Source: Promethearchaeota archaeon
GTDB lineage: Archaea; Asgardarchaeota; Lokiarchaeia; Sigyniarchaeales; SOKP01
DNA length: 22,646 bases
Assembly (NCBI GenBank): GCA_048938025.1
Contig: JBHLMP010000003.1
Span: 66,608-89,253 of the forward strand
Direction of reading: 5' to 3'
Below, one piece after another: positions 18,320-21,056 of the stretch. A model generated the notes under the pieces. It had not been told where the DNA came from. It saw only the letters and a list, made by a program, of their open reading frames with translations, and ran no database searches. Position 1 is the first letter of the stretch. Each line of letters begins with the position of its first letter. The position numbers were made by a program, and so were the translations under genes.

Positions 18320-18847
18320 TTAATTCCCCCCTCCGATCTGATATTTATATATTTGAATACATGTTTTATTTCCATAGGTTCGAGACTCTTTTACTTCAAA
18401 TGGTTCTAAAAAAACTGATGAAGAATCCTTTGAAATGGAGTTAATTTGAGTGATGAGCTCAGACACCATGCCAATAACTATTTCACAACCAGCTACTTCA
18501 ATATCTTCGTAATGATATTTACATAATGAACATTTAGAATCTCGTACTATTACTAATTTCTCACTCTCATTAATTTCTATTGAAATATAGCTCCCAAGAA
18601 CTTTTTGATATATTGTTGTAATAAAATCCTTTAAATTAGAAATATTAACTATGTGTGTAGGTTTCCAATGATTAACATATGTCCGAGCGATACTTTTACC
18701 CATCCTCCTTAATCTTTCTTTTATATCTGATACTCCATTTTTATCCATGAAACGTGCTAAGTGGTATATAGCATTCCGCATTTGATTCATAGTCGCCTCT
18801 GATTGAATCAATTCTTCTCTTGTATAATTCATAATTATGTTTTCCAA
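18320..18847 (-). CDS. V4R / TRAPP-Bet3-like protein
   Basis: ERLRRMGKSIAR...LKDFITTIYQKVLG (Bet3-like), CSLC, CEIVIGMV, ESRTYGNKTC. Stop lies 2 nt before the next ATG, with GGAGG upstream of that ATG. Confidence 0.7.
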   Translation of the reverse strand: MENIIMNYTREELIQSEATMNQMRNAIYHLARFMDKNGVSDIKERLRRMGKSIARTYVNHWKPTHIVNISNLKDFITTIYQKVLGSYISIEINESEKLVIVRDSKCSLCKYHYEDIEVAGCEIVIGMVSELITQINSISKDSSSVFLEPFEVKESRTYGNKTCIQIYKYQIGGGN

Positions 18848-18980
18848 TCTTTTATTAAATTAAATATTGAAAAATACCATTACATAAAAAATTTTTAATT
18901 CGAATAATAGATTATTAGTATGATTTCTTAAGATTTTTAGGAATAGCCTAAAAAAAATTAAAGAAAAATAAAAAAATATT

Positions 18981-19371
18981 TTAGATTGCTTCTATTTTTT
19001 GAATAATTTCTCTAAAGATTTGTTCGCCAACGGCCCCTAACATCATCCCATTTCGAATTAATTGCTGACCTTGTACTTCAATTGGATGATTTAACAGCTC
19101 ACCATTCTTGAAAAACAGAATTGTTGGAATAGCAGTTACTCCAAATCTTTAGCGGCTACTTTTTTAGTTAGCTTTCGCCTAGAGGTCTGTTTTGATCAAG
19201 ATCGGTAGCTAAAAGATGGAATAATCCTTCATGTTCTAATTTTTCTAATATAGGGGACACGAACTTGCAGGGACCGCACCATTCTGTATATATATCTACT
19301 ACAGTAATTCCTTCCTTCATGTCATTTGTAATTGGCAAACCAAATTCTTTTAAATCTTCAATATTTACCAT
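18981..19371 (-). CDS. trxA: Thioredoxin, split: exon 1 19371-19174 (66 codons) + exon 2 19148-18981 (55 codons + stop); predicted spliced product 121 aa
   Basis: Exon 1: VVDIYTEWCGPCK...DLDQNRPLGE. Exon 2 in another frame: RFGVTAIPTILFFKNGELL...MLGAVGEQIFREIIQKIEAI*, including the cis-Pro motif. Joining gives the canonical ...DQNRPLGERFGVTAIPT... Confidence 0.85.
19149..19173 (-). other. Candidate 25-nt BHB-type mRNA intron AGCTAACTAAAAAAGTAGCCGCTAA
   Basis: [GGCG](AA^A)GCTAACT-AAAAA-AGTAGC[CGCT](AA^A): 4-bp central helix, two AAA bulge segments, intron hairpin. Canonical cuts restore the frame exactly. Confidence 0.8.
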
Positions 19372-19403
19372 TTTTTATATCTCGGTTTAGTTTAATTTTG
19401 TGA

Positions 19404-19426
19404 GAATTTTAGCACAACTAAAATTC
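19404..19426. repeat. Perfect 9-bp inverted repeat GAATTTTAG-cacaa-CTAAAATTC upstream of trx
   Basis: Read directly. It lies 33-55 nt upstream of the trx ATG, downstream of a TATA-like TATATAAA (19468-19461, - strand). Confidence 0.5.
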
Positions 19427-19654
19427 GTTAAATTGATAAAATTTTACTAATTGTTATGGATTTATATACACCGTTTCTTTTTATTCTTTTTATTTTCATG
19501 CTATAAATAAATAAGCAGTTTTAATTCTAAAAAAAACACTTTTTCTGTTAACATTTACTAAAATAAAATTTGTACTTATTATTGAAAAAAAATAATTTTA
19601 AAATTAAAAGAGAGTTATTATAATTAAATTAAGAATAATTGCGTGTTAATTAAA

Positions 19655-20161
19655 ATGGCAACATTGGATTTTGATTTTAGAAACCAGATTATTCAATCAG
19701 ACATTGGAAGTACACTTGCTTATTGTTATCAGTGTGCAACTTGTAGTGGTGCTTGTCCTGTGGCACAGGTTACTCAAGGACGTTATAATCCAAGAAGATT
19801 AATTTTAGATGCATTATTGGGTTTAAAAGAAAAGATTTTTGGCAAGGAGAATGCATTCAATATCTGGGGATGTACGGTATGCGATACTTGTGATGAGGTT
19901 TGCCCTCAAAAGGTGGAATTAACAGAGATTTTTACTATACTCAAAAATATGAGTATTGAGAGAGGGGAGGGTCCCGAATATTATACGATACAGGCATCAA
20001 CAATCTTAGAAAATGGTAAAGCTATTCCAATGCAACCCGCGATAGAGAGGAGAAGGGATCAATTGGGTTTACCAAAAGTATTAGCTCCAGATATTAAAGA
20101 AGTAAAAAAATTGTTAGAATCAACAAAATTAACTGGAAAGCTTCCAAATAAAGAAGAATAA
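19655..20161 (+). CDS. hdrC: Heterodisulfide reductase subunit C-like 2x[4Fe-4S] protein
   Basis: CYQCATCSGACP, YNPRRLI, IWGCTVCDTCDEVCPQ, RRDQLGLP. ATG at 19655 preferred over GTG at 19643. Confidence 0.88.
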   Translation: MATLDFDFRNQIIQSDIGSTLAYCYQCATCSGACPVAQVTQGRYNPRRLILDALLGLKEKIFGKENAFNIWGCTVCDTCDEVCPQKVELTEIFTILKNMSIERGEGPEYYTIQASTILENGKAIPMQPAIERRRDQLGLPKVLAPDIKEVKKLLESTKLTGKLPNKEE

Positions 20162-20285: not shown

Positions 20286-21056
20286 GTGAGGAAACCTATA
20301 ATTGCGGGCAATTGGAAGATGAATCGGGGTACTCCAGAAGGAGTAAAGGAAATGTTAAAAAAATTTATACCTCAAGTAAAGGGGATTGATATAGTTAATA
20401 TTGTAATCTGTGCTCCTTTTACTGCTCTACATCCCTTAATTGAAATCACAAAAAAGACAAATATTAAAGTTGGTGCTCAAAATATGTATTTTGAGGATAA
20501 AGGAGCATTTACTGGAGAAATATCTCCATATTTTTTAAAAGCTTTAGGAGTCGAATATGTTATTCTTGGGCATAGTGAAAGAAGGGACATATTCAAGGAA
20601 TCTGACGAATTAATTAATAAAAAGCTTAAAAAAGCACTGTTTATGGATTTAAAACCTATTGTATGTATTGGTGAACATTTGGATGAGAGAGAATCGGGTA
20701 AAACTAAAGAAGTTATTGAATTTCAAATGAATGCAACATTTAAAGAAATAAATAAAGATCAAATGAAGAAAACTGTAATCGCATATGAACCAATTTGGGC
20801 AATAGGAACTGGAAAAACAGCAACTCCTGAACAAGCAGAAGAGATACATGTGTTTATTCGCGACCTTTTATCTCAAAAATATGATAAAGAAACTGCAGAT
20901 TCAGTGAAAATCCAATATGGTGGTTCAATTAAACCTTTAAATGCAAAAGATTTATTTAAAAAGGAAAATATTGATGGTGGCTTGGTTGGGGGTGCTTCAC
21001 TCCAAGCAGATTCATTAACTCAAATAATTAAAGCAGCTGAAGATACAATTAAATAA
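20286..21056 (+). CDS. tpiA: Triosephosphate isomerase, bacterial/eukaryotic type
   Basis: AGNWKMN, GAFTGEIS, GHSERR, AYEPIWAIGTGK, YGGS, GGLVGGASL. 256 aa. GAGGT upstream of the GTG start. Confidence 0.97.
   Translation: MRKPIIAGNWKMNRGTPEGVKEMLKKFIPQVKGIDIVNIVICAPFTALHPLIEITKKTNIKVGAQNMYFEDKGAFTGEISPYFLKALGVEYVILGHSERRDIFKESDELINKKLKKALFMDLKPIVCIGEHLDERESGKTKEVIEFQMNATFKEINKDQMKKTVIAYEPIWAIGTGKTATPEQAEEIHVFIRDLLSQKYDKETADSVKIQYGGSIKPLNAKDLFKKENIDGGLVGGASLQADSLTQIIKAAEDTIK

Follow-up and report, generated by a model that had tools for sequence, protein, structure and literature searches.

How can a thioredoxin be made from a gene whose two halves stand in different reading frames, 25 nucleotides (nt) apart? 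This question is raised by a stretch of 22,646 nt from a Promethearchaeota archaeon (assembly GCA_048938025.1, contig JBHLMP010000003.1, positions 66,608 to 89,253), here called the window, which is C48:66608-89253 in our designation of its genome, G000. On the minus strand, an open reading frame (ORF) starts with the ATG at 19371, includes the catalytic motif WCGPC, and ends after 67 codons with ...PLGES and the TAA at 19170-19168. Its Pfam match is Thioredoxin (PF00085, E 1.5e-8) but covers just 17-64 of the 103 profile positions; in an uninterrupted orthologue the match covers 17-86, across the junction. The rest of the domain, RFGVTAIPTILFFKNG..., follows on the same strand, beginning at 19148 and ending with the stop at 18983-18981, and is offset in frame by 25 nt, exactly where the first-pass annotation of the window had placed it. 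The first ATG, GTG or TTG in this second frame comes 34 codons in, and the ORF list gives just an ORF of 21 amino acids (aa) there. The intervening 25 nt are very probably a bulge-helix-bulge (BHB) intron of the HBh' class that lies within a coding sequence and that the tRNA-splicing machinery, i.e. EndA and RtcB, excises from the mRNA.

This reading starts from the arrangement of the insert, which on the minus strand reads GGCG (19179-19176), AAA (19175-19173), GCTAACT-AAAAA-AGTAGC (19172-19155), CGCT (19154-19151) and AAA (19150-19148), as the first-pass annotation had noted. The minimum free energy (MFE) structure and the centroid predicted by RNAfold agree that GGCG, the 5' strand of the central helix H at the end of exon 1, pairs with CGCU, the last paired intron nucleotides, in one G-U and three G-C pairs, that the first AAA is bulged, and that GCUA(A)CU and AGUAGC enclose the five-A loop of an intron hairpin h' of 6 base pairs (bp) with one bulged A, the four basal pairs of which are retained across the genus. 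A BHB motif is defined by four exon nucleotides before the 5' bulge that pair with four intron nucleotides before the 3' bulge, and motifs are counted as canonical if at least one flanking helix (h or h') has at least two contiguous pairs, according to the main text of a recent preprint on Asgard tRNA introns (10.64898/2026.10.13.758758). With all four central pairs and an h' with no fewer than two pairs in a row, the predicted motif falls into class HBh' and is not especially relaxed. The exon-exon helix h had been called weak in the first-pass annotation, and in G000 it is indeed a candidate helix of 3 bp (UCU at 19181-19183 with AGA at 19148-19146) that the MFE structure adds and the centroid omits; the conclusion drawn from it, that the motif is a relaxed one, did not hold, given the class and an h of 7 bp in the sister species G074.

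For BHB motifs, the cut is described as falling between bulge residues 2 and 3 (PMC2738675, in the parts accessible to us). With this rule, the cuts are predicted between 19174 and 19173 and between 19149 and 19148. Exon 1 (19174-19371) would then extend from the ATG to the second nucleotide of the 5' bulge (M...WCGPC...PLGE), an end that follows from the cut rule and from colinearity with orthologues; the putative intron (19149-19173) would comprise the third nucleotide of the 5' bulge, the hairpin, the 3' strand of the helix and the first two nucleotides of the 3' bulge; and exon 2 (18981-19148) would encode RFGVTAIPT...EAI, followed by its TAA. Excision of 19173-19149 gives ...PLGE/RFG... 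(the slash marks the junction here and below) and a product of 121 aa that is colinear with uninterrupted orthologues of 118 aa, so that the G-E-R-F junction foreseen in the first-pass annotation was borne out. The position of the motif coincides exactly with the cut site demanded by homology. A 4-bp helix with an adjoining 4-bp hairpin base occurs in G000 at a frequency of about 4.5e-4 (223,496 matches in about 5e8 position-length combinations), and no Rfam family matched the region 18700-19600 at E values up to 1.

The insert is not an assembly artefact, the first of the grounds on which its interpretation might have fallen. When contigs of four public DNA runs were aligned to 18800-19500, contigs from three studies (X1 record 3, X3 record 14, X5 record 24) crossed it with no gaps. 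At 19159, one X1 contig has a 1-nt insertion and represents a co-occurring population variant with an extra base and a substitution in the intron hairpin, which matches the 26-nt form of G074. A second species' orthologue that lacks the intron is also present in these runs and shows up as loose ends at 19150. G000 itself comprises 3.52 Mb in 88 contigs (96.7% complete, 5.1% contamination), and its assignment to the Asgard archaea is supported, as the named records with an exon-2 protein of 56-95% identity are metagenome-assembled genomes with Asgard titles (Promethearchaeota, Promethearchaeia; submitter labels e.g. Hodarchaeota, Thorarchaeota), Promethearchaeia being a class within the phylum Promethearchaeota.

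Among the 54 genomes of the genus, G000 included, the thioredoxin orthologue was found in 51 genomes at 52 places, 42 of them uninterrupted, four with an insert at the same position, between G-E and R-F (site A), and six with a 30-nt insert at another position (site B). Site A is occupied in four species, namely in G000, G012 and G032 by 25 nt and in G074 by 26 nt, and a pattern search of 161 genomes of the class retrieved these four alone, the reversed-pattern control giving none; two metagenome contigs (L051, L052) also hold the 25-nt form. The core GGCG-AAA-GCU...AGC-CGCU-AAA is invariant, and the inner hairpin and loop vary. In G074, the stem is a perfect 7 bp and is accompanied by the 7-bp exon-exon helix, with an MFE of -18.2 kcal/mol (z -4.7) that none of 200 shuffled sequences reached. 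A mobile-element origin of the site-A insert was considered and rejected, since a pattern search of all contigs found its 32-nt core as a single copy in G000; the next-best blastn-short matches to this core, among the matches listed (all on contig C48), were 12 nt or shorter.

Site B lies directly before WCGPC. Six other genomes of the genus (L034-L037, L047, L048) are interrupted there by 30 nt that include an in-frame stop and have the layout ACUG-AAA-(9-bp hairpin)-CAG(C/G)-A(N)/U, and a cut after the second bulge nucleotide drops exactly 30 nt and gives T-E/W-C, as in uninterrupted orthologues. The class-wide search added inserts in G100 (L240, 32 nt) and G105 (L241, 30 nt), which belong to two other genera and contribute more sequence variants, so that site B is occupied in eight genomes of three genera altogether. 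The pattern used for this site was partly specific, as four of its 12 matches were ordinary coding sequence of paralogues and the reversed control gave two. Among the 26 metagenome loci examined, four have the site-B insert (L072, L074-L076), its in-frame stop being TAA in L075 and L076 and TGA in the others. One of these contigs, L076, is interrupted at both sites; its site-A insert has 34 nt, is unrelated in sequence (GGUG-AAA-(7-bp hairpin)-CACU-AAA), and the thioredoxin frame is open only after double excision.

Thioredoxin is also not the only protein gene of this organism with a BHB-type interruption. One match of a genome-wide motif scan, described below, led to the gene of aIF2-gamma on contig C39, which is split within its P-loop, GHVDHG/KTT, by a 29-nt insert (G000:C39:14890-14918, L172:591-619) of the layout AUGG-AAU-(22-nt hairpin)-CCAU-AAA. 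With the cut rule applied above, G-K-T-T is restored, and the part downstream matches Pfam GTP_EFTU positions 44-188 and eIF2_C. The gene is single copy, with one match in G000 and matches in 52 of the 54 genus genomes at 53 places. In six genomes of the genus the open frames of aIF2-gamma have about 400 aa instead of 513-549, and the interrupted genes comprise two with the 29-nt type and four with a 30-nt type that carries an in-frame TGA. By pattern search, an insert at this position is present in 29 of the 161 class genomes, all from the window's family, where it is spread over eight of 30 genera, and the reversed control gave none. The 29-nt type (23 sequences) has the full hBHBh' architecture. 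In its alignment 83.7% of the cells are paired, versus 31-44% with slid partners; 11 of the 21 pairs show two-sided changes (37 cells), which none of 500 shuffles matched; 96.4% of the central-helix cells are paired; and the covariation of the exon-exon helix falls on synonymous third positions of codons. A pseudogene is out of the question for an essential single-copy gene in 29 genomes, and of the indirect evidence for splicing of such inserts from mRNA in this lineage, aIF2-gamma is the strongest. Apart from the insert, the aIF2-gamma homologues of the genus are extended at the N terminus by about 115 aa, which include a helix-hairpin-helix domain (HHH_5, E 7.7e-12; L172:242-589) and bring the open frames to 513-549 aa.

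The thioredoxin inserts show the same kind of pairing signal. At site A, 95.6% of the cells are paired, versus 11-59% with slid partners, with three two-sided pair changes, a result that five of 500 shuffles matched; the central helix is paired in all cells and in five of five distinct sequences, one of the changes in L076 is a compensatory C-G to U-A, and both helices are preserved by the compensatory changes. Inserts at the same position with compensatory changes, for which the first-pass annotation had recommended looking in orthologues, thus exist in forms of 25, 26 and 34 nt. At site B, 87.5% of the cells are paired, versus 28-42% with slid partners, again with three two-sided changes, and no shuffle among 500 matched this. 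The site-B intron sequence, moreover, has a pairwise identity of 85% (92% without the loop) versus 53% at the third codon positions of the exons. A maximum-likelihood tree was built from 41 coding sequences, spliced or native, with the truncated L013 excluded; in it, the site-A genes form a single clade (support 100/100), and the site-B genes fall within a nine-member clade (95/86) that includes three intronless genes bearing exactly the predicted junction, which implies a minimum of one gain plus two precise losses, or else several gains. The putative site-A intron belongs to a wider population of predicted 25-34-nt mRNA introns in this Asgard family, which sit in the codons of catalytic motifs, before WCGPC of thioredoxin and within GHVDHG/KTT of aIF2-gamma, and whose history appears to include repeated gains as well as repeated precise losses.

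How would such inserts be removed? In the transcript, the exon sequence GGCG would pair with CGCU, the last four paired nucleotides of the intron, leaving a bulge of three A residues after each helix strand, and the intron hairpin would close the motif. The two-subunit endonuclease EndA would then cut after the second nucleotide of each bulge, and RtcB would ligate the exons and probably circularize the 25-mer, so that the spliced mRNA can be translated into the intact 121-aa thioredoxin. Cleavage, ligation and the identity of the two enzymes are what we infer here. The components are encoded in G000, namely two EndA paralogues (201 aa on C66 and 200 aa on C33), each with the N-terminal and catalytic domains PF02778 and PF01974, and one RtcB (on C68; PF01139, E 4.5e-170). 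Asgard EndA is described as an (alpha-beta)2 enzyme, with an L1 loop or insert that is tied to broad specificity (PMC5829648, accessible parts). As a control, the cut rule was applied to the tRNA-Ser(UGA) of G000, where the helix is CUUG/caag and a cut after the second bulge nucleotide removes exactly the 19-nt intron called by ARAGORN. This program found 32 tRNA genes in G000 and flagged 18 with introns, and of these calls, several of which are doubtful, the one clear case was used; the low count fits the heavy interruption and under-annotation of Asgard tRNA genes reported in the preprint's main text (10.64898/2026.10.13.758758). One and the same rule removes 25, 26 and 34 nt at site A, 30 nt at site B, and 29 and 30 nt in aIF2-gamma, each time with an ORF that is colinear with orthologues, which is consistent with EndA cleavage at five kinds of insert. 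The sequences thus support assigning the thioredoxin insert to the known kind of BHB introns in archaeal pre-mRNAs, the structural features of which are present except for a clean 3' bulge.

What alternatives exist for a removal by EndA and RtcB? The insert could in principle leave the mRNA at the same boundaries by another RNA-level excision. It is the shape of the motif alone that links the enzymes to the substrate, the 3' bulge and the outer helix are imperfect in G000, and animals are reported to have an RtcB-dependent, spliceosome-independent excision that is guided by base-paired repeats (PMC12779559, accessible parts). Against this, the EndA rule fits the boundaries at all five kinds of insert as well as the G000 tRNA intron, both enzymes are encoded in the genome, and the aIF2-gamma intron has the complete hBHBh' architecture with its nearly always paired central helix. 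An excision by other means is therefore improbable, although among the alternatives it is the one that survives best.

Several observations nevertheless weigh against the proposed BHB intron or weaken individual parts of its support, and most of them concern the predicted folds. The fold energy of the G000 site-A region is unremarkable (z -1.29, 24 of 200 shuffles equally good), and the same applies to site B in L034 (z -1.54, 19 of 200) and to aIF2-gamma in G000 (z -0.71, 49 of 200). In L076, the MFE structure of site A does not form the BHB (z -0.42, 64 of 200). The helix, hairpin and clean 5' AAA bulge (19173-19175) of the first-pass annotation are all in the predicted fold of G000, but the 3' bulge (19148-19150) is less regular: the MFE structure leaves 19150-19149 unpaired, pairs 19148 with 19181, and thus has AA opposite a single A, i.e. 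a 1x2 internal loop; a structure with a strict 3-nt bulge can be written down, yet the prediction has its optimum elsewhere, and in G074 the corresponding loop measures 3 nt by 2 nt. The exon-exon helix in G000 has just 3 bp, and site B and the 30-nt type of aIF2-gamma form just three central pairs out of four. Intron A is hardly more conserved than synonymous sites (84% versus 78%), and the double changes in thioredoxin all come from the divergent contig L076, so that they represent one lineage and not six events.

The genome-wide scans of G000 point in the same direction. With a 4-bp H, a 4-bp base of h' and a filter for the joining of ORFs, 1242 loci were found, versus 1165-1351 when the cuts were shifted by -2 to +2, and subsets with a GC-rich H, short introns or AAA bulges were equally flat relative to the shifted-cut controls. 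A filter for missing start codons left 250 loci (252-279 shifted), a scan for four of four H pairs, 2 bp of h' and coding potential on both sides gave 592 (547-606 shifted), and the four-pair scan with the start filter 59 (44-60 shifted). A codon-usage search for 5'-truncated ORFs that adjoin another ORF reduced 464 candidates to 51, again with no excess; it missed aIF2-gamma and returned mainly antisense shadows, tandem genes and genes with in-frame stops. On inspection, thioredoxin and aIF2-gamma alone stood out. The scan for further motif-split genes suggested in the first-pass annotation was thus successful in turning up aIF2-gamma, but it yielded no overall excess, and the motif alone was rejected as a finder of mRNA introns. 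Because of these flat scans, the motif by itself is weak evidence, and the case for a BHB intron rests on the comparative data.

Another alternative is translational recoding, in which the insert stays in the mRNA and the ribosomes bypass it or shift frame. The stop soon after the take-off region and the hairpin in the gap do recall known bypass sites, of which the hop in phage T4 gene 60 is an example. The insert itself, though, has TAA and TAG in the exon-1 frame and two TAA in the exon-2 frame, so that one shift cannot work; this point had already been made from the window, for a single indel as well as for a frameshift, and it holds. Inserts of 25, 26 and 34 nt would also need different shifts, there is no matched pair of take-off and landing codons (the last intron codon before W at site B is CAA, GAT, GAC or GAA), and bypass does not predict selection on base pairing, neither in the 4-bp helix nor between exons. 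Recoding is accordingly very improbable. A selenocysteine or other stop recoding of the 30-nt in-frame inserts, which was considered separately, is ruled out by the TAA in L075 and L076 and by a conservation that follows pairing and not codons.

Might the gene simply be dead, inactivated by a small insertion and decaying, with a coincidental BHB-like fold? An unspliced gene cannot yield the full-length protein, the fold energy in G000 is not significant, BHB-like motifs are common by chance in this A+T-rich genome, and G000 has two further thioredoxin-family genes. Selection, in contrast, acts on both halves alike: in the four site-A genes the ratio of nonsynonymous to synonymous substitution rates (dN/dS) is 0.07-0.20 for exon 2 and 0.08-0.18 for exon 1, at synonymous divergences (dS) of 0.12-0.88, and in the site-B genes it is 0.03-0.07 (pairs with estimable dS). 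This agrees with the earlier impression that both halves are otherwise intact, and it contradicts the scenario of a strain-unique insert with a relaxed exon 2, the more so as four species share the insert. In all ten intron-bearing genes from genomes the predicted spliced products are intact (118-121 aa), with no further frameshifts or stops; the intron core is invariant while the loop changes; the ORF list contains no overlapping ORF on the opposite strand that could explain the conservation of exon 2; and the same architecture splits the single-copy aIF2-gamma. A pseudogene is hence hardly credible. Least credible of all is a two-piece thioredoxin whose conserved halves are translated separately and assemble unjoined, as split thioredoxins can, because exon 2 lacks a start codon over its first 34 codons and has an in-frame stop directly upstream, and because this would leave the conservation of helix and bulges and the 30-nt in-frame inserts unexplained.

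The preferred reading, a BHB intron removed by EndA and RtcB, has precedents. BHB introns in archaeal mRNAs are described for crenarchaeal cbf5 (PMC2738675) and for one 5' untranslated region (UTR) in Haloferax (PMC7714728), and both sources, as far as they are accessible, agree with the statement of the first-pass annotation that introns of this kind are rare in protein genes and mainly known from cbf5. The cbf5 introns (Watanabe 2002; Yoshinari 2006; Yokobori 2009, PMC2738675, accessible parts) are closest to the present case, as they also interrupt an archaeal coding sequence with unconventional or relaxed BHB motifs, have predicted cuts between the second and third bulge residues, occur in hosts with hetero-oligomeric EndA, lie at the codon of a catalytic residue, and show a patchy distribution that has been read as gain and loss. 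The differences are that cbf5 encodes a pseudouridine synthase of Crenarchaeota, whereas thioredoxin and aIF2-gamma are interrupted here in Asgard archaea (Promethearchaeia), that one small gene is interrupted at two or more sites and the unrelated intron sequences number five or more, and that splicing of cbf5 was demonstrated by cDNA, whereas the introns described here are predicted from DNA comparison.

With the dense tRNA introns of Asgard archaea (10.64898/2026.10.13.758758, main text), the putative mRNA introns share the motif definition, the repeated gains and the two EndA paralogues present in most genomes. Those tRNA introns have a median length of 22-23 nt, compared to 25-34 nt here, and their relaxed class is common by chance. 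What is interrupted here is a messenger RNA, and to keep the frame the excision has to be accurate to the nucleotide and either come before translation or compete with it. In the case of Haloferax volcanii HVO_1309, an mRNA was confirmed as EndA substrate in vivo and in vitro, but that intron is in the 5' UTR, leaves the reading frame uninterrupted and is cut by a homodimeric EndA (PMC7714728, accessible parts). Outside the archaea, the IRE1-dependent splicing of HAC1 and XBP1 also removes a short frame-shifting intron without a spliceosome, the exons being joined there by the tRNA ligase RtcB. The XBP1 intron has 26 nt, and IRE1 cuts in the loops of two stem-loops; the cuts predicted here lie in 3-nt bulges that flank a 4-bp helix.

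Our literature search turned up no report of a BHB intron in an Asgard protein gene, nor of one in thioredoxin or aIF2, which is in line with what the first-pass annotation had supposed for thioredoxin, subscription-only papers (including the mRNA-intron predictions cited as refs 39 and 50 of PMC2738675) and supplements being outside its scope. In the preprint on Asgard tRNA introns (10.64898/2026.10.13.758758), the term mRNA is absent from the main text; its supplements, likewise outside the search, could hold non-tRNA insertions.

On the opposite strand of the window, the neighbouring genes encode a 4Fe-4S dicluster protein (19643-20161; Fer4_8, E 7.6e-12) and a triosephosphate isomerase (20286-21056, E 1.2e-97), and for four more ORFs nearby (175-489 aa), Pfam gave no match at E 0.01. 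A scan for bacterial-type promoters and terminators gave five matches versus 5.3 expected and is uninformative. Some 100-150 nt before the start codon of many uninterrupted thioredoxin orthologues (L094-L101) lies a conserved block rich in A+T (...AAATGAAATTAATAAAAG.AATTAAATATTTATT...), which is not obvious ahead of the G000 gene. Elsewhere in G000, two open frames of 493 codons overlap by 14 nt on C27 (12596-14075 and 14061-15540 in reverse-strand coordinates), the second of which starts ...DTPQDVIIGLEVHIQL and lacks ATG, GTG and TTG over 61 codons, which may reflect an unusual start, a frameshift or some other join. Further pairs of open frames are split by one in-frame stop (C26 6776/6779, C29 10071/10074, C29 8150/8153, C15 23470/23473, C12 13550/13553, in forward or reverse-strand coordinates), in selenoprotein-like contexts such as ...GADGVMIIG(stop)YPKECDYETGN and ...IVASA(stop)TPRTHEP; these contexts may resemble MvhD and HdrA.

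In the literature as far as it was accessible, splicing of coding sequences by the archaeal tRNA machinery had previously been confirmed only for crenarchaeal cbf5, and the present analysis adds several putative coding-sequence introns in a family of Asgard archaea, the archaeal group closest to eukaryotes. The interest of the case comes from this lineage, from the essential second host gene and from the number of independent introns. For genome annotation, the consequence is that such genes are called truncated or frameshifted pseudogenes. For experiments, they offer a ready test system with very small introns, junctions predicted to the nucleotide and visible exon-exon covariation. For the cell, a stop-bearing intron in an essential translation factor would have to be cut out precisely, either ahead of the ribosomes or in competition with them, so that transcript processing and translation would not be simply coupled, a point with a direct bearing on the question of how intron-bearing genes were tolerated before there was a nucleus. 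It is tempting, if rather doubtful, to go further and regard the tRNA-type mini-introns as a mobile population that repeatedly colonizes the most conserved codons, before WCGPC in thioredoxin and in the P-loop of aIF2-gamma, and whose removal by EndA and RtcB serves as a gate, tying translation initiation and redox control to the RNA-splicing capacity of the cell; human RtcB is reported to be sensitive to oxidation, in a source accessible to us in part. If this were true, the archaeal relatives of eukaryotes would already have had to process protein-coding transcripts ahead of translation.

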